The notes under the pieces were generated by a model. That model was not told where the DNA came from and did not search any database. It saw only the letters and a list, made by a program, of their open reading frames with translations. 64,000 nt of DNA, taken from Paraspadella gotoi (lineage: Eukaryota > Animalia > Chaetognatha). The stretch lies in NCBI GenBank assembly GCA_051294375.1, contig CM119271.1:7492162-7556161 (forward strand), written 5' to 3'. A program made the position numbers and the translations under genes. Shown here in pieces: positions 23,450 through 64,000 of the stretch; position 1 is the stretch's first letter; every line of letters begins with the position of its first letter.

Positions 23450-23526
<77 letters not shown>

Positions 23527-24025: not shown

Positions 24026-24105
<80 letters not shown>

Positions 24106-30048: not shown

Positions 30049-33000
30049 AAACGAGAACGAATTTTATATTTAATAATCGAAATCTTAATTTTTTTTATTA
30101 TTCAAATCATTCTCAACCTAATTTAATCACCTTAATTATTCGCCGACACATTACTACAAATTAGCTTGAAACCCCCCCCCCAAGTGAAAAGGGATAATTT
30201 TGACGAGGGGTCGGGTTGTCGTTCCTGACTTTTCATCATTTTCCAAAGACGCGGAAACTCGGTGGAGAAATGAAAAGAAGTCGGCGATTAACGGGGTCCC
30301 GCATTCATTACCGCTAACGGGATTCATTATCGTTAACAGCATTAAGACGGGCGATTCTGGTCTCTTCTCTCTNNNNNNNNNNNNNNNNNNNNNNNNNNNN
30401 NNNNNNNNNNNNNNNNNNNNNNNNNNNNNNNNNNNNNNNNNNNNNNNNNNNNNNNNNNNNNNNNNNNNNNNNNNNNNNNNNNNNNNNNNNNNNNNNNNNN
30501 NNNNNNNNNNNNNNNNNNNNNNNNNNNNNNNNNNNNNNNNNNNNNNNNNNNNNNNNNNNNNNNNNNNNNCCGGCCCCGCGCTACTGATCCACCGCCGGCG
30601 CCGCTGGTCTCGGTGGCGCGCGCCAATTGCGCCACGTCCTCGTTAAAGCTGTACGTCGCGCAAAGGCCGGCCGGTCGGCGGCCGGCGCTTCGTCCCGCAG
30701 CCGGCGTTGTTGTTGTCGTCGTTGTCGAAACGCTTCCGACTCTGGCGAGGAAGAAACAAACTAATTACGTGCGCCGGTCGGGCGCCGGCGGCGGCCATTT
30801 TGGAGGAGGAAGAGGATGAGGAGGAAGAAGAAGAAAATAAAAAAGAAGGGAAAAATAAAAGACGCGAGGAGGTTGGTAAAATTAAGGGGGGGNNNNNNNN
30901 NNNNNNNNNNNNNNNNNNNNNNNNNNNNNNNNNNNNNNNNNNNNNNNNNNNNNNNNNNNNNNNNNNNNNNNNNNNNNNNNNNNNNNNNNNNNNNNNNNNN
31001 NNNNNNNNNNNNNNNNNNNNNNNNNNNNNNNNNNNNNNNNNNNNNNNNNNNNNNNNNNNNNNNNNNNNNNNNNNNNNNNNNNNNNNNNNNNNNNNNNNNN
31101 NNNNNNNNNNNNNNNNNNNNNNNNNNNNNNNNNNNNNNNNNNNNNNNNNNNNNTTACTATTTTAGGCTCACAGTCACAAAATTTTATAAAGACAAGATGT
31201 CACTTAAAAATGCCGAGAATTCGGTTTTTTAAACATCAATAATTGGAAAAGTATTTTTTGGATTTTTAAAAATAAAGTATGTAAAATGAAGTATTTTTTC
31301 CGCTCTTTAAGTTGACGCAGGTTAAATTTGATTCCGACTGATATATATTCAGATATCTAACATTTTTAAGGAAAAAAAACGTTTTTTTGCAAATTTTGAA
31401 GAGTTGCAAGCACTTATTGATCGATTTTTAAAAAAAACAAAGATGGGAAAAAATTAGTAGCATATAGGGGACTAATTTGTACTATAGTGCTAAATTCTGT
31501 AAAAAAGTTTGAAAAATTTGCTAAGGCCTAATGTGTACTCGATCAAAAACTTTTCCGATAGTGATATTAGAAAGGAAAATGTTAACTTAGAGCTTGTTAT
31601 ATAAATATTAAAGATATTTTTTAAAAAAATCAAATTTTCCACTCGGAAAATGTCACGCCCGATTCTGTTTTCACCTCTGCTGAGATACGGCATCGTTCGC
31701 TTCGACAAAGGACGCCATCTTTCGGTCAAAGTTGTCAGCGCCGCGAAGGTGAGTCACGCGCGAATCCGTCGCCGTCGACGTCATCGCCGATCCCGCCGAG
31801 TTGAGGGAAGCCGAGAATGATTCCTGGAAGCCCAATATCGAGTTGAGGGAAGCCGAGAACGATTCCTGGAAGCCCAATATCGAAGCCGACGAGGACGACG
31901 TGACGGCGACGTTGGAAGAGGTCAATCTGGGGGATTAAAAGAGGTTCAGATTACAAAGATCGACGCAAATGATCCTGGACTAGTCTTTAGGGCATTCGTC
32001 ATCCACTGTCAAAGCTGTTGTAATATTCAGAGATGGTGGAGCTGCAGCCGTTTTATTTTCTGACATTGACAACCGAGGCGCCGTCTAGTGTCTAGTGACC
32101 ACTGCTCATTGACAAGGTTGGCTGGGGCCAGTCAATTGATCCAGCCAAAAATTTGACAGGAACGTCCCTCTCGATCTCGGCGTCACTCACCCGACGAAAA
32201 AGTCGTCTGTCTCGTCGTCGTCTTCCTCGAAATCGGAGAGAGAAAAAAGTCGCGAGGAATCTCCGTTGAAATCGTTCCGCGCGAACTGAGCCAATTCCGG
32301 GTTCAGGATTTGGGCTCTGGAAGGAGGTTGGGGGGAGGAAGAGGAATAATTTGGAGAGGGGGAAGGAAGGAGTTTGGCTTCGGAAAGAAGAAAAAGGATG
32401 AAGCAAAAAGTGGGAAAGGAGGTTGGGGCTTTGGAAAGAAAAGAGCAAAATGAGTTGGGAGAACTAGAACTAGTTGGAAGCGGAAAAATATGTTTAAAAA
32501 AAAATCATATTAGAAAATTAGAAGCTGAAGGGAAAAAAAAAACGAGAGTGAGAATTTTTTTGGGGGTGAAAAAGGAATAAAAGCCAAAATGGTTCGGAGA
32601 AAATGAGGGGAAATAAAGGAAGCGTTTGACTTTGAATAAGAACGAGAAATAAAAAAAAAATGGGGAAAAAAAACTTGAGAAGCGATTCACGAAATCATCT
32701 CATGAATTTAAGGCTCGAAAACAAAAAGAGAGACAAACATTGTCAGACAGAAAGCCTCTCTTCAAACTCGCTAAGGAAAAGGAATTAAGGAAGAGGAGAG
32801 AAAATGGCGAACGACACTTTTTTTTTCTTTTTTTTTTCTGTGCCAAATTTTTTTGTTGACAAAAAAAATGGGGGGGGGCAAAGGAAGTCTTTCCCGAGGA
32901 AAGTACAAAATCATTGAAAGCCGCAAAGCCAAAGGATGTAAGGAAGGAAAAGAAGGGGAGGGAGAAAAAAAACAAGAATTTCTCCAGGGGAAAAGAATAT

Positions 33001-33712
33001 ATAGCGAATATGCAGATCCCGAAAATATGACGAGTCATATGCAAATGAGAAAAGCGGATTAGGAAAAAAAAAAGAAGGGAGGAAAAAAAAATGCGCGGAA
33101 AAAAAAATGCGCGGGAAAAAAAAAAGTTTTTTTAGAAGCCCGGGCGGAGGAGGAAGCGAAAAGGAAAGAAAAAGAAAAGAGAAGAAAAAAGAAGAAAAAG
33201 AGGAGAGAGAAGAAAGGATAAAAAAAGATTAGGAGGAAATAAAGAAAAGTAGGAAAGACGAAAATGAGAAATGGAAGTCGTAAGGAAGAAGAGGCGAGGA
33301 CGTCTCGGCGTCCCTAGGTGAGCCGGTTCGAACAACGGCGGCTGCAGCTGGAGCGGCGGAGACGGAGGCAGCAGCGGCGTGGCGGGGGGGGGAGGCGAAA
33401 AAAAAAACAAACCTGTAACGGACGCCTTTGTATTCCGGCGGACGAGACTGAAGGAGGTCGAAGGAAGGTCGCGCTAATTGACGCCAAGTTTGTAGCGTTA
33501 CCGACCCGCGGAGGGGTTTCACGATCTCGAGCCGTTCCGGCAAGGCTGGCCTGAAAGAACAGAAAGAAAAGTTTTAAAAGGGAAGCTCTCAAAGCTACCA
33601 TGTTCAAACAGAATCACCGAGACTGAGTGATACGGTTGTCGGCCATTGACCTGAGGATCAAATAAATGAAAGAAACTCTTCTTTCCGCCCACGTCTTGTC
33701 TCTCTCTCGCTC

Positions 33713-33789
<77 letters not shown>

Positions 33790-34162
33790 ATTTTACGACT
33801 TCCGGCGCGCCATTCTTTCTCTCTGCCAAAATTATTTTTGTCCTTCTTCATCCCGTTCCCCTACCTGACCCCCTAACACCTGACGCCAAAAATCTGACCC
33901 CTCGCATCTGATCCCGCGCCGCATGATCGCCACCATTTGACCCTTAAACTTGTCGCCAACGCAAAGCCCCACCATCTGCCAACTGAGACACTCAAACTTT
34001 GGCAACTTTGCTTCCCCCCTATTCTTTTTTTTTTTTTGAATCTCTCCGCCCAATCTCATCTCTCATCGCATCGATTTCTATTCAAGCTTCCCCTTTACCT
34101 GACCAGTGACCAATGATCAATGGGAGAGTGGGGAGGGAAAGAAAAAGGNNNNNNNNNNNNNN

Positions 34163-34193
<31 letters not shown>

Positions 34194-37100
34194 CTGAACA
34201 TTGAGAGAGAGTCAAGCGACATCCGTCCACCGGAAGTCGACGAATAAAGGTCTTCTTCTTCTGCGCCGTCGGTTTCGTCAAAACCAGACGGTGATCTGTC
34301 TCGCCTCCGCGGCACCTGATTGGTCGGAAGGGTCAACGAACGGTAAATTTGCTTCCAAAAGTAGATGTAAAGCCAAAAGAAAGTCGAAGTGTTAAGGTTA
34401 GATAATTATTAATTAATCTGGTCTAGAGATTGTCATTTACCCTTGGAAAAAAAATGTTTTGAATTTGTTTTTCAGGTACAAAACAAATGCAAGAGTAGAG
34501 ACTTGAAAATAAAGATAAAAACATGATATAGACCCTTATGAAATTGGTACAACCAATATAAAAATTATCCATTCATTTAATAATTATATAAATAATATGT
34601 TTCTATAAACTAGTCTGGTGATTGAAAAAAAAAAAAAAAAGAAACGGGATTAAGGCGTGATTTGGAAAGAAGAAAGAAAGAAAGGCCAGGAAGGCTGCTC
34701 GTTCGCCGAAGCGCGAAAAAGAGTTCCGAGGAAAATGGAAGGAGAAAAAAAAATGGCCGCCTCCATTCCTTTTTTTTTCGCTCTATCGCGGTAGACTTGA
34801 TTTTTGTCTTTTTTCTCTCTCTTTCTCTCTTCCTTTTCATCCCCTTTTAATCAAGTCAAATCTTCCCCCTCCGCGTGGATTGCTCCTTTGTTTCTTTCAT
34901 TTCGTTACCTCGTTCCACGCCTCTCCGCCTGCAGCGCTGGCGTCGCTGTCGTCGTCCAAGCGAGAAGACGAGGCGGGGGGACGAGGACGAGAGGGGAGGG
35001 AGGACGAGGAAGAGGCGGATCGACGGGAGGGACGAGAGTGAACGCCGAAAGGGGGATCGAGCGGGTGCTTGGCGGAGGGGGTCTGGAGGGGGGTTGGATG
35101 AGGGAGGGAGAAAAAATAGAACCGTAGTGACACTTTTTGAACAATTAGAATCTTGCGCGACGTCAGGTGGCGAATCGATTTTCGGTTTGAACTCTGAACA
35201 TTGGTTATACATAACAATACTAAATTGCTTAACGACAAAAATAGAAGAAAAAAATGTTGGAAAAAAAAATAAAAATAGGCAAAACAATTCTTCGATTGCG
35301 TCATCGGCCAAAGGTCGAAACGTCACCTTGGCAACGGCGAAGCCGTGTTCCCGCGCCGCCCGACGCAGGCGCCGAATCCTGGCGATGGCGGCGTCCAAGT
35401 CGGTTGAGCCGGGCACGCCGGGTCGACCCGGCACCGCGGGGAGGGCGGTGGACGGGGTCGGGGGTGGACGGGCGGAAGGTTGAGGGGCTGGAAGAATAAA
35501 ATGGAAGTGGGGGATGTGTTAAACCGTTAATATGTAATATTGCCGAGTTTAGAAGGTAAACTTTTTATTGACCTTTGGGTTCAGTTTTGTAGACGTTTTT
35601 ATCACAGTTGTATTCGTTTCGTTGGCGCTTAGCCAAAACTTTCTGCACGCTACGGGGTAGATAATTTAGATTGAGAGGACGCTTTGGTATCGCATCTGAA
35701 AGAAAATAGAATTTTTTGTTAAATAATAACAAACATTTAGCAAGCTATTAAATAATTCTTTCACCTTTTGCCTTGGCATCGGGCGATGCCTGTGACGAGG
35801 ACCCGTCCCCGGCGGATCTCGGCAGCGGAGGGCAAAGTTCGCCCGACGATTTTGCGTCCACCGCGCAGCCGCCGATGATGCCCGTTTCGTCGAAGACCGC
35901 ATCGGGTTTGGAAACCTCCGTGGCGTCCCTCCCGATTCGGATCGACGAGCGACTGGAGGCGTCGAGGAGAGTCGACGACGACGTCGTCGCGGAGACGGTC
36001 GTGGAAGAGATCGATGGCGTCGCGGCGAAGAGGCTCGTCGACGATGAAGAGATCTTGGACGAGGTCGAGGGAAAGGCGGCAGAATGTTTTGATGAGGTAG
36101 TAGAGACGCGAGTGTCGACGGAGGTCGGCGACGATATACTGGAGGCCGAAAGGTTCGTCGTCGTTGTAGTGGGCAATGGCTCAAAATTATCAAAGTTCGA
36201 ACAACAATTGGAGTCCAACGATTCGTGTTGTCGGCGATCAGCGTAGTCGACGTCGGCCAAGGGGGTTCGACGAAAACCCTCGCCACCGTCGACGTCCGTA
36301 CGAGCGACTCGAGCGTCATCGACGAAGATATCGGCGTTGGCGGTCAATGGGATCGTCAAGTTTCCCTCGTGAAAGCTGCTACCCATTCCCGAGTCGCGAG
36401 GAGGGGGCGGGAGAGGAGGAAGAGGAAGAAGATTGACTCCAGTAGTAGTCGGCGCCGATTCCGACGCCGTCTGCGTCAGGTAGGCGGCGTTGCTTCGACG
36501 CCCACCTGCAGTAAAGAAGAGAAAAAAAGGCGTTGGCTTAAGGAAATAAAATATACAGACGATTCGGCGGGAGAACGGAGAGAGAATGTGGCGGGGATAA
36601 TGTGGCTGGGAGAGAGAAGAGAAAACCGATTCCACTACCCCTCCCCTTACCCTTCCCCCCACAATCCGACCCCAAAAAAAAAGGACGATTCTGGAAACAA
36701 TTTGAGGCGCAGCGGAGCGGCTGAAGGATTAACCTCGGAAAAGTAATTCCTTCTAATGTTGTCGGGCATAAAGCTCCATCGGTTTCAATTAGCGGTCGCC
36801 GACGAAATTAATCGTCACCGTTAAAAAAAAAAGTAAACAAACGTTAAAAAAATAAAGCTAAAAAAAAAAAAAAGACGAGGAGTGGAAAAACAAAATAGTG
36901 AAAAGAAAGAGAAACTAAAAGAAAGAGCGAAAAAACTCTATCCGTCATAGACTCTTTTTATTTTTCATTCAATTCATTCTTAGGTTTTTTTATTTTTGTT
37001 CATTCACTTTATCTGTTCCTTTTTGTTCTCTCTTTTCTATTTTTTTCTCTCGCGTCGCTTCTCTTTTCCCGCCCTCGGGTTTTCTTCCTTTTTCTTTTGT

Positions 37101-37612
37101 CCTTGGTCTAAAAAAAATGGAGAATATGTGCTGTCGATGGAAAACGGAGGCTGCGGTATTTGCGGTCGTTGTTGTGTTTGTCACCAAGTTTTCCGCATTA
37201 TTCATGAACATTGAACAATTTTTAATTGCGAGCGGCACTGTTCGATACAGTCGATTGACAGAAGCGAATGATGCTGGCAAGTACAACGTTAGATGGAATA
37301 GGGGTATTTAAAAGGGATTGAGGGTGAAGGGCGAAAGGGACACAAAGGGGCGTGGAACCGTCGATCCATTTACTCCGTTTTTCTCTCGCGCCGAGTCGCG
37401 TGTCAAAGATTGAAAAGAGATAGGCGCGCAGCCTCATTAGCACAAACCATTTTGAACTTTTTAACAAACGCGCGGGACCCTCGCTCAGGCGGGCGAACGA
37501 GCGAACGAACGAGCCAACGAACGACCGAACGACCGAACGCGTTGATGAATTACCGGGCTGGCTCGCGTTCCGGAATCCGGGAACGCGCCGTCTTACAAGC
37601 CGTCTGTTCTCT

Positions 37613-37630
<18 letters not shown>
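30049..37630. repeat. About 7.5-kb near-identical duplication, copy B
   Basis: Starts immediately after the 25-N gap at 30024-30048; colinear with 20236-27560. Confidence 0.95.
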
Positions 37631-37643
<13 letters not shown>

Positions 37644-37892
37644 TCTCTCGTCTTTCTCTCTCTCTCTCCTCCTCTCTCTCTCTCTTTCAGCTTTCCCTCT
37701 CTTTCGCTCTCTTGCGTGCGCGCAACGCACTTCCGCAAACGAGTTTTTCAGAGAAAACGAAGAGAAAAAAAGAAATTGAGAAAGACATGAGAGAGAAAGG
37801 AAAAAAAGGAAGAAAATTTCTTCTAAAAGCCTAAACGAATTCGTTTTTTTTTTTTTTTTTTTTTTTTTACGGCACAAACAAGCTTTTCCCCA

Positions 37893-38879: not shown

Positions 38880-41800
38880 AGAGAGAGAGAGGAGAGAGAG
38901 AGAGAGATGAAGAGCACGAGACAGTGGTGTTACAAGCATTCTGAGTAAAAAGAACCGTTTTTTTAACGTTTTTCCTTCATCTTCTTTTTTCAACAAATGT
39001 TATCTTCGTTTTCGGCTTTGAGAAAGCTTTTCTTTCTTTTTACTTTTAAATTCCCCTTGAAAAGAGACTCTTCGGGAAGAGTGTTGTCTGTCGTTTGTTA
39101 TCATGATTTAATTTACTACTTTTTTTTTAGCTTTTTTTTACTCGCGGATTTTTCTGACAAGAAACGAGAAATAAAACAAATAAAACGGGCGATAAAACGC
39201 GGTCGAGGCATTTTTCCCAAGAGTGAAGTAGTGACCGCGCGGTTGGCAGGACGCGGCAATTTTATTATGTTATTAACGGAGATGGAAACTTTAGTTTATA
39301 AAAAAAATTTAAATATTAAAATTTAATGCAATACGTCCACCCGAGCATAAAAACATAAAGAAAACCGCTAAGTTAAAACGATCCAACTCACACCGGGAAC
39401 ACACCGACGACCGACCTGCTTCAAGGCTTTTGACGCCGCTTTCACCGTCTCAAAGACACGACGGTTTTGATGGCGCAGATTTTCTTGGAACCGCGTTATC
39501 TCCGGTTCCGCCGACGCCAGCAGGGTCGATTCCAGTTCCATGGCCAACGAGGCCGGGCCCGCGCCAACGGATAACGGCGCCAGAGTCGCGCCGCCGCCGA
39601 GGAACCGAAATCCGGCGTCAAAACCGGCGAAGCGAGTGGGCGATGCCGCCAACAGCTGGCGGTGGCAGAGGAGACAATGGAGTGATTAACGACGGAGGAA
39701 TTAGCAGGGAAAAAAGGAAAAAGGAGAAAGAAGAGCAGAAATTTAAGGAAAGTACATAGCGAAGTGGGGAGAGGAGACGTAGGAAGAATCTCCAAATTTA
39801 ACTTAAAGTGGTAAGAAAATTGTTAAGTTTAATGAATTGTCTATTGCCAATATTTTCAACGTATTTTAATAAATTATTAATACATTAAGTCCTTTATATT
39901 ACTATACCTATAGTCATCGGGATAGACGCGTAATATAAAGGATAATGTAGAGATATTAATAATTTATTAAAATACGTTGAAATTTAAAATAATTTAAAAA
40001 CTACGGAGACAATTATTTGTGCATTTAGTCAAACAAAAGTCAAACATCTCCTTACCGAATCCTTGGCCGACGACTCGACAACCACTTTGGGCGACAACTT
40101 CCGCTCGAGATTCTTGACGTTCTTTCGACTCTCATCCAACATCTCGACGGCGACGGTGTGGTCCTGACGAAGTTCTCCCAACTCCTGCGTCAACTCGCGC
40201 TGAGTCTCCCGCGCTGCCAGCAGATGCAGCTGTAGTTCTTCCTTTTCGAGAGCCTGACGCTGCGACGTGAATTAACAAGTTATTTTTAAGAAAAATTTTA
40301 ATAATAGCTTTGACAATATAGATGAAATAGCTCCTTCGCTTTCATTCGCAATTCACAATTGGGGCGTTCACCTTAAGTTCATTGGAACTGTCGCACATCT
40401 GACTAAGCATCGATGTAATGTCTTGCTGTTGATGCAAACACTCTTCGGTCTTGAGCTGAAGTTTTTGCAGCAACTGCGCGTTGCGGCGGTCGCTCTCTCG
40501 AAGCTGCCGCACCACGTCGTCGACGAGAGCCGACTCGCGAGCCTCTGCCTCTTCTTCAGCCAATTCAATCGATGAGGCCGTACTCTTAAAATCAATGATA
40601 ATTTTAAAAATATAAAAAAATATTACAATGAAGCTATTCGCGACAACGTCCATTCAAAGTCAATACCTTTAGTTTTTCGTTTTCTTGTTGCAGTTGTTCA
40701 ATTTTCTTTTGAAGATTATCGACTTTCGCTTTAGAGGCCTCACCGTCTAAGAAAAGAGGGAAAAGACAAACAAAAGTACAACGCACCAATTGAATAATTC
40801 AGTTTAAATGATTGAAATATTTTATTTTTATTTTTGGAAGAAAGCATTCCCACCTTTTCGGCCTTCATCGTCTTTTGGTTTCACGGCATAAAGAGATGTG
40901 AGGTCCTCCACCGAATCGCTGTTCATTTGTTGGTTTAAAACGCGGATTAAATCAGTCTTCATTGACGCTTCGTGACGAAGTTGGGAAACCTTCAATTTAA
41001 CCGGAAATTAAAACACGAGGGTCATTTTCATATTTTACCTTTTTAAATTTATGGTCATTAAACAACGGTAACTAAATAAATTCTGAACGTGTCTTTCAAG
41101 ACCTGCTCTGTCAACGAGTGCACCCGTTCCTCAAGATCCTCGTTGCGAATTCTCTGCTGTTTGTTCTCCTCCAACAGAGACTGTCCGATCCTGGCGGCCA
41201 GTTCCAGGTCTGCCTCCTTTTCGCGCAGCAGCGCCACCATCATTTCGGGATCGGAGTAGGTTTTCGTCATGGCAGACAAGCGGCATCCGCTTTGAAAGAA
41301 AGGAGTTGAAAACAAATAAGGAAAGATTGTGTGCGAAATGAGAATGCTTATGTAGAAAATGCCCCTATATGCCTATAATCGAATGCTTTGAAACATAGAG
41401 ATAAGATTTAGGTAATTTCGAGCGAGTGTAAAATTTATTTATTATTTGGCTCCATTGTTTATGTGTCATCGTTTGTTGATACGGGTTTCTGATTATTTGA
41501 AAAAAAAAATCGATTTGACCACATTAACCTTTCTTATAGAGGCAGGGATGGACATTTCTTTCTTATCTCTGAAATTCTTATTCTTTTTCCTGTCTCTTTT
41601 GAATTTCTTTACCGAAGAATTTCTTGATTATTTTCCCCTGGAATCGAATCGCCACCAAAACAGATTTGGGCGAAAGATAAAAAAAACCAGAGGAAAAACC
41701 TTTTTCCAAAAAAACTAAGAAAGTAAGAAGGAAAAGGGACGTTAACTGAATATTTTGACCAAAAAAGATTAAAAAAAAAAAAGGAAAATGAAATGTTTAC

Positions 41801-42956
41801 TAATAAAAAAGAGAGAACTGAAGAGACAGTAATAATTGTTATGTGTTAGTGACAGAACCGTCCAATATAAGCAGTCCCTGAGCTTCGGATCAGGCGAAGT
41901 GAATGACTTGCCTCCGGCACGGTTGGTGGAATTTAGTCCACCATAGAACCTTATAACGGGTTCAAAGGCCGGTTTAAAATAAAAATTGTCAACGGAGTCC
42001 AAGCAGTCGTAGTGTGGGTCACCTCAAAAGAAAGAAGCCGAGTGTCGCCTCGATCTGCTCCTCGGAAAGATCGAGTCGTCTGCCGATCTCCTCCGTCGAC
42101 AGAACCGGGAATTCCAAGGTGCCCGTCGGATCATCGAAATCTGACGCAGAGGGTGGTGGTGGTGGTGGTGGTGGTGGTGGTGAAGGGATTGAGAAGGGAT
42201 AAGGACAAAAAATGGATGAACGGTTAACCAAGTCGAAATTCTAATTCGAGGATCATTTCGACAACACGGTTTCAGTTAATGTCACGCTTTCGATGCACTT
42301 TTAGTTCATATATTTGTATATTAATATAGTGGACGACAAGTAGTATGCAAAGTTATTCGAGAGTCGACACATTTCATTTCCGAATAAACTATAAAGATAT
42401 AATGAGTTTTTGTTTTCCAGTGAAACGAAATTACATGATTGCGTGAGTCGGATTTTTAGTTGGTGGGAACTCACCGGGATTTATTTTTTTTCTAAATCAT
42501 GAGATTTGAGATATTTCTGTTATAAAAATTATTGATTTAATGAGAGATTGATGGCGATTAAGATTCTCCTTTAACTCACCTCTAAGTTTGTACAAAACCG
42601 GCGAACACTGTTCCTCCACTTCAGTGCGGTTTGGAGTATCTCGGAGTTCCCTCGATAAACCTGCAATCCAGAAATTATTTAGGCTTTTCGATTTTATCAT
42701 CGACGTAATAGACTATAATTTGATAATTGAGTCCAAGATTAACGTATAACACAAACACACACACTCTCTCATCTTTAATATTAATTACCTTAATGGATAA
42801 TTTTTGTTTTGGTTTACTAATTAAACCCATTATAATTTATATCAAATGCTTTACTTTTTCATTGTCTTTTCTCTTCTTCTCACCTCCGGAACAAGTTAAA
42901 TAATTCAGAAGATCATTGCTACAGAATCCTTTTTCGTCCACCAGTTCCAGAGGATT
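30570..42956 (-). CDS. TRAK: Trafficking kinesin-binding protein (TRAK/Milton; HAP1_N plus Milton motifs), multi-exon; start exon not found
   Basis: GT-AG exons: 42884-42956, 42580-42660 (LYKLR), 42023-42140 (LSEEQIEATLGFF), 41103-41289 (MTKTYSD..LLREKEADLELAARIGQSLL), 40854-40989 (VSQLRHE), 40667-40746, 40372-40584, 40056-40259, 39416-39655 (SLAMELE..RVFETVK), 38517-38748, 35765-36505, 35327-35487 (PGVPGSTDLDAAIARI), 34909-35082, 34194-34315, 33413-33550 (LPERLEIVKPLRGSVTLQTWRQLARP), 32191-32316, 31675-31926, then 30741 into the gap. Phases are consistent down to 33550; below that, indel errors and one unresolved junction remain. Confidence 0.92.
39854..39982. mobile_element. About 130-bp hairpin/MITE-like inverted repeat in a TRAK intron
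   Basis: TTTCAACGTATTTTAATAAATTATTAATA pairs with TATTAATAATTTATTAAAATACGTTGAAA; the inner arm CCTTTATATTAC pairs with GTAATATAAAGG. Confidence 0.75.
41819..41945 (-). mobile_element. Solo LTR (internally deleted) of the TRIM family at 54306-54888
   Basis: Same termini (TATGGTGGACTAA...CTGTCTCTTCA on -), flanked by a 4-bp TSD (GAAC on +, 41815-41818 and 41946-41949). Confidence 0.85.
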
Positions 42957-46141: not shown

Positions 46142-46826
46142 GCGAACGGCCCTGTCTGCGCCACGCCGGGTGCACTTGGGCGATCTCTGTGTTAAACTTT
46201 CGTCTTCAAAAATTAAAAAAAACCTGGTGCAAGTTTTTATTTGGAAAAAAAAAATAGCGAGAATTAGAATTTCTGGAGGAATGTGATTTCTTTAACTTTT
46301 TTTTTTATTTACCAGACTTCTATTTTCACTTGTGCCCCTCCTGGAAGTTGGATCTTTTTTACGATATGAATCGCGTAAGACTCTCCTTATTCTACTATAA
46401 AAACGATAGATGGGTTGCGATTCACAATCACTGGTTTTGATAGTCTTTTTTTTAGTTTAGTTCTTTCGCAATTTGTAGCGGCTGGGTCTTTTTTCCGTGC
46501 GCCACTTGAAGCACATTTTAATTAATTTTTAAGTGTTTTGATTATCAAGTTTCGTTAAGTTCATTTTCCGATCTGATTAACTTGAATCTCTTCAACTTAA
46601 CTTATCAAAACAGTTGAAAACATTCGACTTCAAGTAAGATTCCTAAAAACAATTCCACTGTAAATTTGTATTAAATTGTAATTTTTACTGCTCACTGTTT
46701 CGTTAAATAAACCGTTTTATCTTAATAATTGCTTCATTTTTTCTACCGAGTGCATGTACCGTCAAGTGCTGTAATATTAAGGAAGTGCCCCTTTTATTTA
46801 TTTTGATATTTCTAAATATAATAATA

Positions 46827-47746
46827 CATGGTGACAATTTTACAAGCGCCGGTAGAAATATGCTGTCATTTGCAAACCAGTGGTCATTTTATTGATTTTA
46901 AAAATTAGTTGAGTAGAACATATTAAAGTCATTTGTGTTCAAATTTTATATTGATCAGTTAAGATATGCTTTGGCAATGAGTGGAGAAAGTTGGCTTGTA
47001 AAACCGGGTTTCATTTTCCAACTCACTGTTTTTAAATTCTTTTTTTTTTTAACTTTTAGTTATTTTTTAAACAAAGTATTTATTAAGATATTAACATTAT
47101 TAATATCCTCAGAAAGCCCTTTAAAAAATGAAGAGAATGATATACTTATGAAAGCTCTAACATAAAAATTAAGCTGCCCAGCCTTGGTTTAATTAAGAGT
47201 CAAAAGTTAATTATTTAAAATTTTAAATCTTTTTTTAAAATATATGACCTGATTAAATTATTATAACATAAAATATTATTATTTATATAAGTATCATGAA
47301 AGAGCCTAAAAAAAAGATTTAAGATAGCCAATCACAATTTGATAAAAATCTTAAATTTATCCTCCAGCTATTGATTTTTGGAAAGATGTTTTGTTTTTGA
47401 GTATCCTAATTAAATTAAAGCTGGGCCAGTTAAATTTTATACTACAGTATTTGTTTTCAAAAGATAATAATATTAATATTATTTTATTTCAAATTTCTTC
47501 AGAAAACTTATTGAAAGTAAGAAAAAAAAATTGAATTTAAAAAAGTGAGTTAGAAAATGAAACCCGATTTTACAAGCCAACTTTCTCTACTCATTGCCAA
47601 GGCATATCTTAACTGATCAATATAAAATTTGAACACATAAATGACTTTAATATATTCTACTCGACTAATTTTTAAAATTTATGAAATAACCACTGGTTTG
47701 CAAATGACAGCGTATTTCTACCGGCGCTTGTAAAATTGTCACCATG
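46827..47746. mobile_element. 920-bp foldback MITE with TA target-site duplication (Tc1/mariner-type)
   Basis: Termini CATGGTGACAATTTTACAAGCGCCGGTAGAAATA... and its reverse complement; inverted similarity continues several hundred bp inward; TA at 46825-46826 and 47747-47748. Confidence 0.88.
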
Positions 47747-47844
47747 TAGTTGTGGTGTTGCGGTATATTCAGTGAATATTATTCACCGCCTCACGTCCAT
47801 CCATCCCATTGCCATTGGCTAAGACTTCCCTCTGCGTTGGCAAA

Positions 47845-53180: not shown

Positions 53181-56100
53181 TCCCCCATACCCAAAAACAA
53201 TCACTGGGTTGGTGACTCAGGGCGTAGTTTCTATCGAGTTTCGCGATTCCTTCGTCGACGTCGTTTGTCCGTAACCATGGAGACGTGATGTGGTAATTTG
53301 ACCAGAAACGAGAGTCCCTTTCGTTGAGGCTGGCGTGGTAAATAAGAACGACCTGGAGATTTTTAAAAATAGTGAACACTAGAAAGGCCTAGAAAAAAAA
53401 AAGCTGATTGTGTTTCTCTTTTCATTTATATTTAATAAATAACGCTCAGAAAATGAGGCTCGCCTGCTTTTCTTCTTTCCATAAATTCGCCAAGGTCAGT
53501 TGATCGTAGGAGCGGACAGACGCGAGCTTCGATCCGAGAATTTCGGTGATAAGCCTTTATGCAATATTGATTCGTAGTTTATAAAATAGAAGTATTTGAG
53601 AGATGTGATTAAATGGGGGAAAAAAATTATAAAAAAAAAGGAATTAACTTTGTTGAATCCTGAACTTTTGAGAAACAAAATTCTACAAAAATTCAAAATA
53701 AAACTGGGATAAAAAATTGAAAAAAATTTCTAAAAAAATTTGGTAAAAAACACTTAATAAAGTAAACTGCTCTTAATAAAAAAAATTGTGAGAAAGCTGG
53801 GTAAGGCGAATATAATTTGTGTAACTTGCCTGGCGAAATTTCTATGGTCCGTCGACGACATTCCGTAAAAATGATTAATATCAATAATTACGACCTCCTT
53901 TGGGTGATTCGACAGGAATTTGTTTACTGCCATCAAGCCTTCTTTCGCAGACTGTGAAAGAGTTACGGATAATGAAATTGTTCATAGTGATATAATCTTA
54001 ATGAACTACAAGGTAGAAATCCAAAGAGGAAAACAAAAATTAGAAAATTATCTTTTGACAATTAATTAATTGTCAGGTTACACATAAGTTACCGTTCGTG
54101 AAAAATAGACGGGTTTATTTTATTTAATACCTGCGCGTATAAAGAGTGGAGAAGATAGATGTCCCCATTCTTCGATTCCCGAGATGCGACTCTAAAATCC
54201 AGATACCGAATTCCAGCTTCGAGTTGTTGTTCCAAAGTTAGCGCTTGCGTCACTCCCCAGTTATATATTATTTTTTTCGCGGCTTTTCCGAAAAAATTAA
54301 TAACCTGAAGAGACAGTAATAATTGTTATGTGTTAGTGACAGAACCGTTCAATATAAGCAGTCCTTGAGCTTCGAATAAGGCTGTAATACCATGTTACTT
54401 GCGGGTTAAGCTAGGCGACCACCGGGCTAGAACCCCGGATCTTTGGGTTGGGAGGTGAATGACTTTCCTCCGGCACCAATGGCCGCTGATGAACGGTTGG
54501 TGGATTTTAGTCCACCATATATCCCCCCCTCCCGTAGGGATAAGTCTGTTGCGTCTCTTCAGTTAATTTTTGTTGTTGTTGTTGGAAAGTTCATCACCAA
54601 GTTGAGGTATGTCACCTGATGTGTTGTTGCTGTTGTGTTCGGAAGTCGGGCTCACCAATGAAGAGACAGTAATAATTGTTATGTGTTAGTGACAGAACCG
54701 TTCAATATAAGCAGTCCCTGAGCTTCGGATCAGGCTGTAACACCATGTTACAGGCGGGTTAAGCGCCCCGTCCCTCTTAACTGCTAGGCGACCACCGGGC
54801 TAGAACTCCGGACCTTTGGCTTGGGAGGCGAATGACTTGCCTCCGGCACCAATGGCCGCTGATGAACGGTGGATATTAGTCCACCATAAACCTGAAAATT
54901 GGCGAGAGATAATGTGCTTCATTTTTTTAAAGAATTTCTATAAACAGTGTTTATTAAACACAATGTTTATTAAACACAGTGTTTATTAAACACGGTACCT
55001 TGATAAGCGTTTCAGACAAATCAGGAGATGGACCTAGTTCCGCTTTGTAATCCAGCAAAGCTGTGAAAGAGTCGTGTGATCCGGGAATCGCTATTCCTGA
55101 AAACATAAATAAACTAATTATTAAAATACTAATGTAATAATTTACATCGAAAATGAAAAGTCTTTAAGTCTTTATGTTTAATCTGTGACAGAAAGTCTGT
55201 TCAAATAAAGTTTTAACTAAGGATTCAACAAAGTTAAAAACAAAAACAACTGCAGCGATGGCGATAAAAAAAAACTTAATCCTTTCCGATTATTTCAACT
55301 TTGTCAAGTTAGATAAAAAAGCCAGACTCAAAGACGTCGTAGAGATTTTCTGAAGAAAAAATCCAAGATGGCGGCTGAACCCATGAATTCCAAAGACGAA
55401 GATACAGACGACGATGACGACGAGTCTCAGTTGACGAACGATCGGGAAAATGTTGTCACATTTAAAGTAACCGGTTAGTTCATTCGTGGCGGGAAGAAGG
55501 CCGGTCGGAGATTTACGCCTTTTCGACCCGAGGTTTTTTTTTTTTTTTTTTTTTTGTTCCTCAGTGGGGTTTTGCTTCCCATCTTTGCCCAAGGCCGATG
55601 AGAGCCAACAACAACAACAGCAACAACAACAACAGCAGCAGCCGCAACCACCGAAGCCGCCGGCTGCTGTAAAGTTTTTTCACTGTTCGTTTTTCATGTT
55701 TCCCGAGGATGTGAAGCCGGTAGAAGCCGACGTTGTGATATTTCATCAAGGTAGACGTTTTCGGTCTGAAAAAAATCTTTCAATCACTAATAGCTATAAT
55801 AGTAAGGAGCTATCTTTGACGATTGAAACGACAGAACCCATGGGCTACATCGCCAAAATCTACACCGAGGACAACGAGCCTCAAGTGACTGGAGTTTGGG
55901 TGAACAAATCGTCGTCGTGGATCGCGTGGGAGCATCGATTGAGAATCAACGCCACCGCGAAATGGATCCCCAATCTCGTCGACCACGCCGTCGACGTCCG
56001 CCTCTGGGACACCCCGGACAAGGTGTCGCCGAAAGCGAAAAACGACAAACCGAAAATGTTCAAAATGTTGGAGGGCACGAACCTGCAACTGCGCGACAAC

Positions 56101-57975
56101 GTGAAGAATCTGGTCATGAACATGTCGCAACATTTCCCCGTCTGCGGTCGAGAGCTGCAATTGAGGGGATGCGACGAGCGCAAGCTTCCCCACGTAATCG
56201 AGGCGGAACCGGAGCCGGAGCCGGAGCCAAAACCGGAACCGGTCGTGCCCGAAGTACCCGCGGAACCTCCGAAGACTCCGGGAAAAAAAGGCAAGGGTGG
56301 CAAGTCCGGAAAGAGCAGCCCCAAGAGTAAATCGGGAAAGAGCACGCCCAAGAGTAAATCGGGAAAGAGCACCCCAAAAGGAAAACAGGAGAAGGTGAAA
56401 ATATCCCCCGAGGAAGTGGCGCGAAGGCTCAAAGAGCAAGAGGAGGAGGCCAGACGGAAGAAGAACGGGATCGTTGGCGTGGCCCTCGATATGAACCCTT
56501 TTTTCTCTGCCAACCGTGTCGAATGGACCAACCGGTTGGACGTTCCTTATAACGAAGTCCAGGATATGTTCGTTAAGGTGAATTCTAGAGAACAAAACGC
56601 TTTCACATCGTATGTCATTCTGAACGCTCTGTTTCTCTTCCAGATTTCTTTGGACGAACCTCTCCTGTCTCCAGAAATTCAGCAGGAACTAAACCCATTT
56701 ATTATCGACGTTTCCTGCGTCCGCGATCTTCCGCCACCGATGAATCCTCAACCCGTTCCTGACTACATGAGCTACCAATTCCCGACTCAGCCTCACCGCG
56801 TCCGCCAAGGAGTCCGACGAGGACGCGAGGTGTTCTGGGACGATCTGCACGTCATTCTAGTCGGTCTCTTACCGGAATCTCGGCTCCGGGAGATCTTTCT
56901 CGATCCGCCGATGACCATCGAAATTCACGATCGAGACAGGAAAGACGTTCCGGTTCCGGCGAATCGCTTCGAAGATCGTTATGTGGATTGCGGCAACCCG
57001 AATTGCCCGCACACGCCGAACGAGCCATGCTATCGTCCGCGAAGATGGGAAGAATACGGGATAGCGCGCTTAGATCTCTCGCCGCTTATCTTGGGACAGA
57101 GGGGTTTTCACGCAACGATCCCTATCGTGCCGGCTCAACCGCCGGACCCGCTGGCTCGTAATCCAAGAGTAGATCTCAAGCGGTTACGACGCGACATCAA
57201 GCGGGGAGAGAAGACGGAATGGAACGAATGGCCGGTTGAAAAACTGGTGCCGCCGCTGGTGGCGCCAAAGGCGCCTTATTTGGAGGAGGAGTCGTCTCTG
57301 GAGGTTCGCGTGGAACTCGCTGTCAAACTGAAGCCGCTTCAGGCCGTGACTAAAGCGGGACGGCCGAAGATCGTGGACGAGGCGATCGCCGGTGGAGAGG
57401 GTCGAGAAGGCGGCGAGGGTTCGAAGAAGGAAGAGGGGTTGGAACCGGAAGTCGTCGTCGAAGCGGGATCCGAGGAAGGGGAGGAGTTCGATGGAGAAGA
57501 CGGCGCCAAAGAATCCATCAAACCGGAGAAAATCGAAAACGCTTTCGGAAGAATCGTCTTGAAATTCTCCGGCGACAATCGACGACTCATGCTGAGCATT
57601 TATCAAATGGTCGCCAACATCAACGTCGAGGCGTTGGGATTTCAAGAGATTCCCGAACACACGACCAGCTTCGCCATGGCGGCGAGGAGGCTCGCTCCCG
57701 AAGAGCGGGAGTCGATCGAGTTGAACGTCATTTCTGGTTTTCACTTCATGGATCCCGTCATTCAAATCATGGTGCTGGAGGGCGTGGCGGAGAAAGGGAT
57801 TCTCAATCTTTGGGAGGATTTTTCGAAGATGCTGACAGACGATCCCTATTTTACGATCTTTTACAATTCCTGCATCAGCTTTGAGGAGGTGAATCGCTAG
57901 TTTGACGTTTCGAATAAACGCTTGAAAACTAAGTCGCGGCGTTCGTTTGTTCTTTCTTTGTTCTTTCCTTTTTTT

Positions 57976-58067
<92 letters not shown>

Positions 58068-58578
58068 GATTTTTTTTCGATAATGATTAAAACCAATTTC
58101 CGAAAACACCATAACATCGAAAAGCGTCTTATTGAGTCGCGACCAAAATGATAATGACAGCGGTGATAACGATGATTATGATTATGTCGCTTCCCAGAGA
58201 CTTTACATCCGGGAGGAGGTTGACCTCATCCGTGTTACTCTGTGGAGTCCGCTTATCGACTTTGTTTCCAAGTCGTTGACTTTCGTCCGTGGGATCGTAA
58301 GGCCAGAAACTTTCGATGCGCTGTTGAGGCTGAAAGGAATCGTCTTTGCTCAAAAACTCAGAGACGTCGTTCACAAGGACTACTTTCCCACGCCAGGTGT
58401 GGAAGGGGTGAGAATTCATTCATTACTCCGATAAAAAATTAAATAAAAATTCGTAGTATGTATGGGAAAATAAATATAAAAAAGAATTAGTTTAGGATAT
58501 TTCATTACTAAATTCGATTCACTTAATTTACCGTTTATCTGCAGAATTAAACGGAAATAGCTGAAACATTGCTGATGC

Positions 58579-58651
<73 letters not shown>

Positions 58652-59487
58652 TCGAACTCGATTTTCACTACTGCTAGCAATTTTCGTAGTATCGGCTTCC
58701 ACAAATCACAATACTAAGTATTTTCGTTTCACGCTTCTCAGTGATGTTAGACTCGCTGCAGAAAGAATTCGGGATCCCGCTTGAGCAAAGATTCTTCGAC
58801 GGGTTTCAAACCATCATCCCAAGAACCAAAATTATTCCGGAAGTTCATGAGTCCTTCCAGGAGGAGAGTCCCGAGCCGCCCGAGTTCACCAGCGCCGAAA
58901 GATTGGCCATCAGGAATCAGTGGCAAGAGAACGCGCCCAAAAAAGCAGAGAAAAAAATTTCGGAATGCGCGGCGTCTCGAAATTCGTTCATCGCTTGCGA
59001 AGTCCGTAGTTTGGAATTACTCAGACAGATTTGCGATTTGACGTGAACATTTAAAATTTCTCAATGGAAGAGAGTAAAATATAATATTCAATACCTTTTT
59101 AATTGCTTTTCATATCCGATTTATTTCCAAAATACTATACGGAAATAGGAAAGAGTGCAACAAGGGTTTTAATTTTAGTTATACCTACACTGTAGGTCCT
59201 ACAGTCTTTCTGTAATGAAAATATCGAAATTTCGACGAATATCTTACCAGTTTTTTTTCGTGTATTTTAGACAGATTACCTGAAAGTGGCATATTTTGTA
59301 TTTTTGTCGGAACCGTACTCATCCAATCGGAATTTGAATTGCTGAAAGATGTCTTCAAGAAGTTAAAAACTTCAACGTTTTCAGCCATTTTTTGGAGGAA
59401 CAACTTCTGGACCCCATACGGCGTCGGCTTGGTAGAAAATACATTTTGTACTGAAAACAAAAAGACGAAAATCGCTAACGGCGTCAT
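52896..59487 (-). CDS. PLCXD: PI-PLC X domain-containing protein
   Basis: Seven exons: 59280-59487 (..DWMSTVP..MPLS), 54999-55096 (GIAIPGSHDSF), 54131-54304 (WGVTQ..QLEAGIRYLDFRVA..YLLHSLY), 53830-53951 (FLSNHPKEVVIIDINHFY), 53464-53554, 53191-53352 and 52896-53108 (VTQGVLTP..VNVVVVDFV..VINLN). All phases are consistent. Confidence 0.93.
54306..54888 (-). mobile_element. Non-autonomous LTR retrotransposon (TRIM), 583 bp
   Basis: 5' LTR 54659-54888 and 3' LTR 54306-54519 (TATGG...TTCA on -). PBS TGGTGAGCCCGAC follows the 5' LTR; PPT GGGAGGGGGGA precedes the 3' LTR; TSD GGTT at 54889-54892 and 54302-54305; 139-bp non-coding interior. Confidence 0.9.
54787..54859 (-). other. 73-nt tRNA-Gly(CCC)-like module inside the 5' LTR (second copy 54414-54486); not a functional tRNA call
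   Basis: 7-bp acceptor stem GCGGCCA/TGGTCGC, anticodon loop CTCCCAA, T-arm CCGG(A/G)-GTTCTAG-CCCGG and A-box-like TGGTGCCGGAGG; D and anticodon stems are imperfect. Confidence 0.6.
55368..59046 (+). CDS. CFAP92: CFAP92/KIAA1257 (DUF4550)-like cilia/flagella-associated protein, nested antisense in PLCXD intron 1
   Basis: Exons 55368-55473, 55565-55750, 55835-56577, 56644-57888, 58198-58396 and 58742-59046 (3' end tentative). Motifs include WIAWEH..VRLWDTPDKVSPKAK, ELNPFII, IEIHDRDRK, YGIARLDLSPLILGQ, FGRIV, VISGFH..IMVLEG, RLY and EFGIP. Confidence 0.8.
57981..58066. repeat. (CTTT)n microsatellite in an intron shared by both strands
   Basis: Seen directly. Confidence 0.9.
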
Positions 59488-60328: not shown

Positions 60329-61430
60329 TCTTTCTTACGTATTGATGTTGTTGTTGTTGTTGTTAGAAAAGGAGGAAATATCACGAAAAAGAAACTTTCG
60401 CTACAATATCAAGTTTGTTGTTGTTGTTGTTGTTGTTTCTAGAAAGCCCTTAGAAGTAAAAGAGATCGTTCAAAGAGAACGACTGAAGTTGTTGCTGTTG
60501 TTGTTGTTATCGTCATGAAGACAACGTCGTCGTCGTCGTCGACAGCGTCGAAGTTCTTACAGAGTAAAGATCGTTCGAGGAGAAGAAAGAAGATGGCAGA
60601 TCTCGTTTTATGTTTGTTTACATCTTTTTCTCATTTTTGATCGATTAAAACTTTAATTTAAAAATTTCACTTCACTCTTTCCCGCCATTGGTTAAAGTTA
60701 AAAAAAGTTTTCTGAGTGCGCACATGACAACAAATAATGAAAAAGACTTATCATTATTTATAAATTATTTATACCTGTGATATTTTAGAATTGTCGAATT
60801 CTGTGAAGCAATGACTGAGCTTACAATTCAGTTACAATATTCCTTGCACTCTCCTCTGTACATTTATGGTACCATTTGTTTTTTGATCCAGTTACTCTAT
60901 TCGCGCAAGCGCCATTAGAGTTCACAAACTCGACCAAGATTCTCATTGTATTGGTCAGACCTCATGGTAGCGAAAAGAATAAAACCCAATATTTTTCTCG
61001 CTTCGTGTCATTTCCTTCTTCTCCTGGTTTAAATTTCGGTCCCATTCAACCGTTTTCATCATTCAGGAGGATAAAAATGGGCGGAAAATTAGTTTACTTG
61101 TACAAAACACAATGACTGTGCAACGAAAAAGTTGTTGTTGTGGCATTTTCTTTTCAAAATTTCTTTTTCCTTCCCGCAAGTAAATTTTCTTGTATTGCAG
61201 ATGGAGGTCGAAGGAAAGGTTTCGCCCGCTGGATCGTGGACGGACGACCGATGTTGGAAACGACTCTCAAGGCTTGACCCTCTCGTCGAGGCGCTAACGG
61301 ATCGTCAGTCCGGCTTGACTTAAAAAATTTACCAGTGCCTCCCCATTCGGTTCGTCTCTCACTCTCTCTCTCACTCCCTCTTTCTCGTTGAAGTTCTAAT
61401 ACATAAACACAATGGTTGAACGTAACCCTT

Positions 61431-64000
61431 ATGGCTGGTCGTAAAAAAATCAAAGGCCGCGCGTTGACATTGGCCGTCGTCCTCGTGGCTTGCGTCGGAT
61501 TCCGCGTCTCGCATCAGCTCCACCTTCGTTTCGAATCGCTTCCCGAGGATTCCACAGTGTCGCCCAACGGCACGGTGACTTTGCATTGCGACGCGGAACG
61601 GGTCTTCGGCGAGGAAGAAGCCAAAGCCCCCGTCGAGATCGAATGGAGAAAAGACGGGGAAAAATTGAATCTACTCTCGAACGACTCGTCGGCGAGAATT
61701 TATCAGCTCTCCAATGGATCTCTCGTTGTGCAAAGATTCGAGTCGCGTTCGGATCGCGACGATGGAAATGAAAATACCGACGAAGGTCGATACCGCTGCG
61801 TGGCCACCGGTCCGGAAGGAGTTCTTCTTTCCAAGTCCGCGACAGTGAAAGCGGCCGCGACCCCATTTTTTCCCGACGATGGTCATCCTCAATCTACCTC
61901 TGTTCACCGCGGCGGCGCGGCCAGGTTCCGTTGCTCCGTCGGCGATGGGACCGAACCGCCCGTCGAATACTCATGGAAGTTTAATCAGGGAAATCTACCT
62001 CAAAACTCACGATTTACCGTCATACCTGGAGGCGCTTTGCAAATCGCAGACGCGCGTTTTTCTGATTCAGGTTTCTACCAGTGTATTGCATCCAATATTG
62101 CAGGCGTCGCATTAAGCAACAAAGCTTTTTTAAATGTTTTACTTGGCCAAGATGATTCAACTACCTCAAAAAATATTGAAACCAAGCCTTTAGTTATGAG
62201 AGCCAGACCCTCGAATGTTTCCGCTCTTATTGGCACTGATGTAGTTTTGGAATGTTTGCCCGATGGATATCCATATCCTGAAGTGAGTTGGTTTTTTTCG
62301 ACTGGACACCCGATAGACACAACAAATAACTCCCATTACACGATTTTTGGTCGGGGTAATCTCATGATTATTGGCGCAACCGAACAGGACAGGGGCTTAT
62401 ATGTTTGTAAATCAACGATTCCAGGCTCACTATCTTCTATATTAACATCTGCGTTTGTTGAAATGCTAATTCCACCTAAGTTAATCGAAACACCCAAGAG
62501 CTTTTCCTTACCAATTGCTCAAACTGCGAGATTTACTTGCCTCTCTGATTCTTCTACTTACCCAACTCCGATCACAAATTGGTATAGAAATGGAATGGCC
62601 GTGAATTTCATTGGAAGAATAAAGAAAATGGATGGTGGAAAAACTTTATTAATATCCCAGCTTACCACTTCGGATGATGGAATATATCAGTGCATAATAG
62701 AAAATAAAGTAGGGTCAGTTACAGCCGCCGCAAAGCTGACGGTAAATATATCAGGTAACGAGCCTGCATCTCCGACAAACCTCAAAGCACTTAGTCTGAA
62801 AACCACTTCTGTAACACTTGAATGGGAAGCAGTTTTGACATCTATTTCTCGTCCTATTGTTGCCTATTCTGTTCATTACTTCCAAACCAAAGGAGGTCTC
62901 GAGTTTCAAAAAATTGAAATGGAAAACAGGGCTTATATCACAGAGTTAAAACCATTCACCAACTATACATTTTATGTTGTCGCTTATAACAAAGAATCTG
63001 CATCGGAACACTCCAATTATTTAACACTTACCACAAAAACCTCTTTGCCATTAGCAGTGCCAGATTTTGTCGTAACTCCAACCTCTTCAACGAGCCTCAG
63101 GCTCGATTGGAATGAACTCCCAATCGAAAAAACAAGAGGTATAATTACTTCTTATAAGATTTTGTTGAGGTCAAAAGTTGATCCCGAAATTACCGTTCGA
63201 GAAATTGATGGAAAAGAACGGCGATTCACATTAACTGGACTAAAGCCTGGAACTTCATATGACGTGTAAGTTTCCCAATAAAAAAAAGTAAATATTCTGA
63301 AATAATTTTAAACAAAAATTCTTTATCCTAATTTTCTTTCAGACTATTGCTTGCTGGAACGACTGTCGGTTATCCTGTTTACAATGAAGAAATGTGGAAA
63401 ACTGTGTCAATGCCTGCTCAAAATTTAATTAACATATTGAAATCTCCGTCAATGAACGTTAATATCTTAAACGCAACCGCAGTCCTCATAAACTGGAACT
63501 CAAATGCCAAAAACGTCATGGGATACAAACTATTTTACAATAAAGAAACTGAGTCAGTGTACGGACCTATTATTCATATTAAAGATGTTACGTCGCATTT
63601 ATTATCCGATCTACAGCCAGGATCTGTTTACATTTTTAAGTTGGTTGCCTTTAATATAAATGGTGAGAGTGGCCCGGTTACACAATCTGTACATTTACCA
63701 TCGAAGTTCCAAACTACTACTGTTGACCTGGGAGATCAGCCAAAAATGATTGAAAACACAGAGAATAATACTAGAAGTTCTTATTTGCCACCTCCTCCAC
63801 ATAACATTCGAATTGCTGTAAGGTCACCAGATTCAGTCAGTATTTCTTGGCAGCCCCCTTTCCAGCATAAACATTCTTATAATACTGAAGTTGTCAGATA
63901 TACGATTAAATATAAACCCTTTATTACAAATCGCCCATCAGATCCTAACATTTCTTTGTACAAGTACAAACAAAGTGCAAGAACAAAGATTTTAGTGACG
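61431..64000 (+). CDS. PRTG: Protogenin-like / DCC-neogenin family receptor (signal peptide, 4 Ig, FN3 repeats), 3'-partial
   Basis: Exon 61431-63265 holds four Ig domains (DEGRYRC, DSGFYQC, DRGLYVC, DDGIYQC) and most of two FN3 domains (LKPFTNYTFYVVAY, LTGLKPGTSYDV). Intron 63266-63342 (GTAAGT..TTTCAG). The next exon runs from 63343 to the window end (LLAGTTVGYP.., LQPGSVYIFKLVAFN). Confidence 0.85.

Follow-up and report, generated by a model that had tools for sequence, protein, structure and literature searches.

TRIMs whose LTRs contain tRNA-derived sequence have been described under the name Helenus (TRIMp3) (Kojima, 2024, Biology 13:119, PMC10886601). Animal Helenus families are recorded there from six phyla, the hosts being fish, bivalve, wasp, brachiopod, nemertean and ctenophore, and they display 4-bp TSDs and PBSs common to Gypsy elements. 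Helenus elements range from 311 to 1263 bp, and in most families, not all, a box A of the form TRGCY...YGG and a box B GGTTC are found; use of Pol III is predicted and has been validated for no family (PMC10886601). Another paper (PMC12859917) merely cites Helenus in the portion of it covered here. The original prediction for the locus analysed in this work, a TRIM with a tRNA-like module in each LTR, had supposed that no such family was described, a claim overtaken by the publication of the Helenus design in 2024 (PMC10886601). Because the class of tRNA-bearing TRIMs is thus already described, a further member matters little as such; what the present element adds is probably a new family and a new host lineage, an apparently high abundance, and the prediction of a helper (a CsRn1-type Gypsy element primed by tRNA-Trp).

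Other systems share single traits with the locus. The TRIMs Cassandra and Ajax are non-autonomous like the element and have in their LTRs an internal Pol III promoter derived from a small RNA, such as is predicted here, but their LTRs carry 5S rRNA sequence whereas the module considered here is tRNA-derived, and the Ajax TSD comprises 5 bp. Gypsy elements of the CsRn1 clade (PwRn1, AgCR) possess a tRNA-Trp PBS consensus whose seventh base is G or C, and a 4-bp TSD (PMC2582038). Introners, among them LTR-derived ones (Gozashti et al., 2025, PMC12130899), are transposons spliced out of pre-mRNA by way of encoded or co-opted splice signals.

Structure of the element

Within the window, which is the whole 64-kb stretch of DNA analysed, a 583-nt LTR element is located on the minus strand, running from 54888 to 54306. 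Two LTRs flank an internal part of 139 nt that has the PBS at its start and the polypurine tract (PPT) at its end, and the following features were assigned:

54659..54888, minus strand: 5' LTR of 230 nt with ends TA...CA; loose contig ends at 54659
54306..54519, minus strand: 3' LTR of 214 nt; loose contig ends at 54306 and 54519
54645..54657, minus strand: PBS of tRNA-Trp type, one base past the 5' LTR; identical at 12 of 13 bases to the PBS for tRNA-Trp shown in PMC10886601 (Fig. S2)
54522..54533, minus strand: PPT of 12 purines, 2 nt ahead of the 3' LTR, assigned from the sequence
54553..54561, no strand: internal inverted copy of the last 9 LTR bases, whose predicted stem with the U5 end would enclose the PBS
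54302..54305, no strand: TSD copy, AACC on the plus strand; base 54305 completes the new splice-acceptor AG
54889..54892, no strand: TSD copy, AACC on the plus strand; overlaps the old acceptor

Boundaries and parts agree with the original prediction, in which a complete miniature LTR element with two LTRs, PBS, PPT, a 4-bp TSD and no ORF had been proposed. The LTRs differ from each other by 12 substitutions in 210 aligned columns and by two indels (4 and 20 nt). The terminal sequence TA...CA is backed by the loose contig ends at 54306, 54519 and 54659 and by the GAAC TSD of a solo LTR described below, a 4-bp TSD being present in both of the two family copies within the window. The longest ATG-started ORF codes for 14 aa on the sense and 46 aa on the antisense strand, and no retroelement domain was detected by Pfam in the 84 long ORFs scanned (12 + 72) out of the 110 in the window. 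The PBS was assigned to tRNA-Trp by comparison with the published PBS and consensus. The stem formed by 54553..54561 and the U5 end appears in both the minimum-energy and the centroid fold, with an overall z of only -0.59. The internal part (54520-54658) also contains a degenerate direct duplication of the PBS and of a CAA-rich tract, spaced by about 58 nt.

Judged on its sequence, the element falls under the definition of Helenus, combining TRIM structure with tRNA-derived LTR sequence, PBS, PPT and a 4-bp TSD. It has two LTRs, is non-coding and with 583 nt stays below the limit of about 1 kb; tRNA-derived sequence is present inside both LTRs, where general detectors were negative; and the 12/13 match of the PBS to tRNA-Trp, the 12-nt PPT and the 4-bp TSD typical of animal families complete the set. 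As in the Helenus families covered in PMC10886601, the tRNA fold is non-functional, box B reads GGTTC in the 3' LTR and in the majority allele, and the PBS is directed to a tRNA 3' end; Helenus-2_SyJa likewise has a tRNA-Trp PBS and the LTR of Helenus-3_TheEle likewise starts with TA. In contrast to most Helenus families, box A of the element lacks TRGCY, and no T-run follows the module, unlike in many of the bivalve, brachiopod and fungal LTRs seen in that source. When the supplement of PMC10886601 was searched for 12 motifs of the window, 9 were absent from it and the other 3 occurred, in the passages displayed, in unrelated contexts or in an anticodon loop shared by fish families. On account of the 9 absent motifs the element is probably not a listed Helenus family and probably constitutes a new one, this being the outcome of a motif search of the supplement and not of an alignment. 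In part 9 of the same supplement, the LTR ahead of Helenus-1_SyUm-I shows by eye a hammerhead-like core (CTGATGA, hairpin, GAAA) that goes unmentioned in the main text covered here.

Membership in two further groups was considered and rejected. An Rfam search gave no 5S rRNA match at E<=10, and identity with Cassandra or Ajax, which have 5S rRNA-derived sequence in the LTR, was discarded. A complete hammerhead core was found on neither strand of the element, within which no GAAA partner occurs, and the Rfam search gave no hammerhead match; the element was therefore not classed as a retrozyme, since its LTR is without a hammerhead ribozyme.

Ancestry of the LTR module

Both LTRs contain a segment of 73 nt for which a tRNA-like nature had been proposed:

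54787..54859, minus strand: decayed tRNA-Gly(CCC)-derived module of the 5' LTR with degenerate box A and box B; 55/75 identical to tRNA-Gly(CCC) gene L007; model R1 33.1 bits, E 4e-7
54414..54486, minus strand: decayed tRNA-Gly(CCC)-derived module of the 3' LTR; 53/75 identical to L007; model R1 23.1 bits, E 3e-4

These two segments, predicted from the outset, are the best positions for a cloverleaf template in their respective LTRs. The template score is 50 in both LTRs, a value reached by 0/300 and 1/300 dinucleotide shuffles of the whole LTRs and, when the GC-rich part was shuffled, by 1/1000 for each LTR. As the antisense strands score 47-48 against 50 for the sense strands, the template test taken alone is thin, and real tRNAs obtain 69-73. 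The acceptor stem has 7 pairs, one of them G-U, the T arm is kept and a CCC anticodon loop is present, whereas only 2 of 4 pairs are formed in the D stem and 4 of 5 and 2 of 5 in the anticodon stems of the two modules, and the minimum-energy fold of neither module is a cloverleaf. The description of the modules as cloverleaf-like is thus justified for acceptor stem and T arm but not for the D and anticodon stems or for the folds. ARAGORN found 0 tRNA genes in the window, and no tRNA match was obtained with Rfam (RF00005) at E<=10 for a region of 1.6 kb or for each 96-nt module region. The covariance-model check that had been suggested with the original prediction consequently came out negative, though a Gly-specific model, R1, matches both modules. 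A functional tRNA gene was rejected, the cloverleaf and the invariant bases being absent.

Because the template test is thin, the tRNA claim rests on the similarity of the sequence to genuine tRNA-Gly genes. Metagenome contigs were scanned with a degenerate pattern to which both modules conform and which had been designed after the module had been seen; it was found at 38 loci, 9 of which were identified by ARAGORN as tRNA-Gly(CCC), representing 5 distinct genes; the seven of these loci inspected are without encoded CCA and continue into a T-run. In order to avoid circularity, only the bases outside the pattern were scored in a flank-only test, which covered 36 of 38 loci, 2 being set aside for their short flanks. 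Loci L007/L024 scored 47 against 13.8+-4.7 in shuffles and L001/L034 41 against 12.9+-4.6, in each case with 0/2000 shuffles reaching the score, and the other three tRNA-Gly genes gave weak results (33, 115 and 346 of 2000 shuffles). Matches at 0/2000 were hence obtained for 4 of the 9 tRNA-Gly(CCC) loci, equivalent to 2 distinct genes, and these matches extend to both sides of the pattern, with z of about 6-7, and stay exactly aligned to the 73-nt tRNA frame. In the whole 64 kb, model R1, built from the five tRNA-Gly genes, ranks the two modules first, followed by a match of 12.5 bits; its E-values are partly circular, as the tRNAs in R1 were picked by a pattern taken from the module. The flank matches of the L007 and L001 type indicate that the module is a decayed tRNA-Gly(CCC) copy in which acceptor stem and T arm are kept and the D and anticodon arms are broken. 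The original prediction of a tRNA-like module, sense-oriented in both LTRs, is thus supported.

Box B has the form GGTTC in the 3' LTR and differs from it at one base (54807) in the 5' LTR; GGTTC is the majority allele, accounting for about 98% of the family depth at 54807. In box A, which starts with TGGTG like that of Gly tRNAs, YGG is present and TRGCY is absent. The promoter may be dead, since box A lacks TRGCY and the invariant A14 and box B has a T at position 57.

Among the loci of the metagenome scan, L004, L006, L025, L029, L031 and L038 resemble SINE heads of tRNA-Gly(CCC) origin, with intact A and B boxes and without an acceptor stem, and the same properties characterize a second group (L008, L011, L017, L026-L028 and L036).

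Family copies and their transcription

A second copy of the family is present in the window:

41819..41945, minus strand: solo LTR of the element's family that has lost most of the tRNA module through two internal deletions; GAAC TSD at 41815-41818 and 41946-41949

It has a 4-nt insertion in common with the 3' LTR and distal variants in common with the 5' LTR of the full element. The differences between the two LTRs can be taken in part as subfamily variants, and the two LTRs of the complete copy may be chimeric between subfamilies. Since the solo LTR agrees at some of these differences with the one LTR and at some with the other, dating by LTR divergence was rejected.

Eleven public runs cover all or part of the stretch, nine of them from one organism (A), while runs X10 and X11 cover small shares of it only. 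In X1, the flanks had a summed contig depth of 23.7; for the internal part this value rose to 84,000-135,000 and for the LTR to as much as 1.2 million, and loose-ended contigs numbered 162 at 54519, 83 at 54306 and 106 at 54659. Since summed depth is not a copy number, the junction counts were taken as a floor, from which the family size is read as hundreds to thousands of copies. The module is covered at a depth similar in order to that of the remaining LTR. Deletion joints, among those listed, were each confined to one or two contigs per run, and the common variants in the acceptor stem (54791 and 54788) are G-U/G-C swaps that keep the pairing. A family with so many copies would be a good substrate for a Pol III test of Helenus. 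In X10, which derives from a second organism and of which 2 contigs were examined, two short contigs match the LTR end (54622-54719), one of them including the PBS, and may represent a related family or contamination.

We consider it likely that a Helenus-type non-coding element is present whose tRNA-Gly(CCC) copy acts as an internal Pol III promoter, which depends for its copying on a Gypsy helper acting in trans, probably one of CsRn1 type, and whose copy at this locus is spliced out. TFIIIC would bind boxes A and B, and Pol III would start near 54859, read through the internal part and the 3' LTR and stop at a flanking T-run. A helper particle would package the element RNA, tRNA-Trp would prime the minus strand and the PPT the plus strand, and the integrase of the helper would produce the 4-bp TSD. 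At this locus the insertion hit the acceptor of a 107-nt intron in a PI-PLC X-domain (PLCXD) gene, where the 3' end of the LTR and the first TSD base rebuild an acceptor, and the element would then leave with an intron of 694 nt, so that the reading frame survives. The sense strand contains neither TTTT nor AATAAA or ATTAAA. The lack of a T4 run and of a poly(A) signal suits Pol III read-through, TTTT being missing from 26/302 window tiles of the same size, though it is also missing from 512/2000 shuffles of the element and from 1036/2000 shuffles of an LTR-plus-internal unit.

Because the PBS fits the CsRn1 consensus exactly and the TSD has 4 bp, the CsRn1 clade of Gypsy is probably the best candidate for the helper, in keeping with the original proposal of an animal TRIM that has a tRNA-like module in each LTR and is mobilised, probably, by a Gypsy-like partner. 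CsRn1-clade elements, as described in the part of the literature covered, also resemble the element in having non-canonical LTR ends, but they are autonomous, and it is at the 3' end that they deviate (TGT...AAA or TGT...ATA), whereas the element does so at the 5' end (TA...CA). PBS and TSD length would fit a dependence on this clade, which is regarded as a candidate helper only.

A competing explanation is that the element is a Helenus-like TRIM by descent in which a tRNA (SINE-head) relic is carried as a passenger, the RNA being made by Pol II, either from a TATA-like motif located distally in the LTR or as read-through of host genes. Such a passenger would agree with the degenerate boxes A and B, with the TATA-like motif near LTR position 180, with the loss of most of the module from the solo LTR and with the sense orientation of the copy inside a transcribed gene, but neither poly(A) hexamer is found in the LTR, the module is kept at high depth throughout the family with its listed deletion joints restricted to one or two contigs per run, and the acceptor-stem variants retain pairing, which together make this explanation unlikely. 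An ordinary TRIM with a GC-rich hairpin region that resembles a tRNA by chance would account for the silence of Rfam and ARAGORN, for the small distance between the sense and antisense template scores and for a likeness detected with a pattern designed after the fact; it is considered very improbable in view of the L007/L024 and L001/L034 matches, which reach beyond the pattern on both sides at 0/2000 each among 36 loci and keep the exact register of the tRNA frame.

The intact 7-bp acceptor stem and the CCC anticodon loop could also be those of a working tRNA-Gly gene borne by the LTR, and other functional RNAs might be suspected from a weak antisense score for the C/D snoRNA sR38 (E 0.11) or from a CTGATGA motif on the antisense strand of both LTRs. 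However, the D and anticodon arms are broken and the folds are no cloverleaf, the template score of 50 lies well apart from the 69-73 of real tRNAs, the sR38 score is 14.6 bits against a cut-off of 50, and the hammerhead motif is without its GAAA partner inside the element, leaving a functional RNA of any of these kinds scarcely credible.

Insertion at a splice acceptor of a PLCXD gene

The anatomy of the element had been correctly predicted, but its position on a host splice acceptor had been missed: the element sits exactly on a 3' splice site of the PLCXD gene, with the following arrangement:

54999..55096, minus strand: PLCXD-like host exon that precedes the element; its donor GT occupies 54998-54997
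54131..54304, minus strand: PLCXD-like host exon directly downstream of the element
54305..54336, minus strand: LTR-derived 3' splice site with CTAAC branch motif (A at -29), AG-free spacer, pyrimidine tract and CAG
54892..54898, minus strand: acceptor inferred for the gene before insertion, at present upstream of the element; lost from one X4 contig by a 6-nt deletion

The 3' end of the LTR supplies what we take to be the branch motif, CTAAC, together with a pyrimidine run and CA, and the G of the TSD completes the acceptor; the TSD corresponds to the last G of the intron plus the first codon of the exon. In a contig of run X9, position 54999 is followed directly by 54304, the minus-strand ends of the skipped part being GT-AG (joint listed as 54302|54997, CT..AC ends), and the PLCXD frame stays open. 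The 694 nt skipped are made up of the 107-nt host intron, the element and a single TSD copy. Splicing to the old AG would instead add 587 nt, with a stop at codon 69 and a frameshift. X9 behaves as RNA, since several introns are absent from its contig. At least one insertion junction was present in each of the five DNA runs of organism A (5 samples, 2 studies; one run is possibly the source of the window), and among the joints listed for these runs none corresponded to an empty site. In an X4 contig with a depth of 12.2, six bases are missing at 54889 and the old acceptor is gone. It appears quite probable that the acceptor formed by LTR end and TSD is used at the PLCXD locus, with the qualification that an empty allele in the X9 animal would produce an identical join.

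If true, the replacement of the PLCXD acceptor would be a clean natural case of a TRIM concealed at the border of an exon, and it would matter more if it were family-wide. Both TSDs in the window begin with G on the element strand. The consensus of loose ends over many junctions, in contrast, is ATAT with an agreement of 0.39-0.45, and a target preference for a starting G is therefore unsupported, as is a family-wide acceptor strategy. It is doubtful that a Pol III-driven Helenus family in a new host lineage, with hundreds to thousands of copies, would use its LTR end as a ready-made 3' splice site and repeatedly replace host acceptors, with the PLCXD locus, where one allele is already without the old acceptor, as a replacement in progress. 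In a literature search by title and start of the abstract, outside subscription papers, no report of splice-acceptor replacement by a TRIM or Helenus was found.

Introners, as far as described in the part of PMC12130899 covered, make new introns, whereas the PLCXD copy lengthens an intron that was already there, leaves the host donor in place and substitutes the acceptor only. The locus was rejected as an introner, as the donor, 107 nt away, belongs to the host and an older acceptor lies upstream of the element.

The host DNA is that of an animal, as a protogenin-like Ig/FN3 protein encoded in the window is 35% identical to fish proteins. PLCXD relatives show 45-67% identity to the protein P0024, the best named ones having 36-39% identity to the nearest full-length relative, and in a PLCXD tree from which the window's own protein was left out, the closest relatives group apart with moderate support (83/89). 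With moderate confidence, given word-limited searches, the host lineage is placed outside the fish, bivalve, wasp, brachiopod, nemertean and ctenophore hosts of Kojima.

Additional features were observed in the window. On the plus strand, an 809-aa frame with a DUF4550 match (55471-57900) lies antisense in a 4.2-kb PLCXD intron (55097-59279; the upstream exon ends at 59280) and forms a nested gene. The protogenin/DCC-family Ig-FN3 frame, also on the plus strand (61407-63269), is uninterrupted over 620 aa, its best matches being only 35% identical, and would presumably be an unusually long exon for this family. Positions 20236-27561 and 30049-37648 form a tandem segmental duplication of about 7 kb with 95-98% identity, possibly a haplotype artefact of the assembly. 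Finally, a 290-nt inverted repeat pair with 87% identity at 46825-47748 and a 129-nt imperfect palindrome at 39854-39982 may be MITEs.
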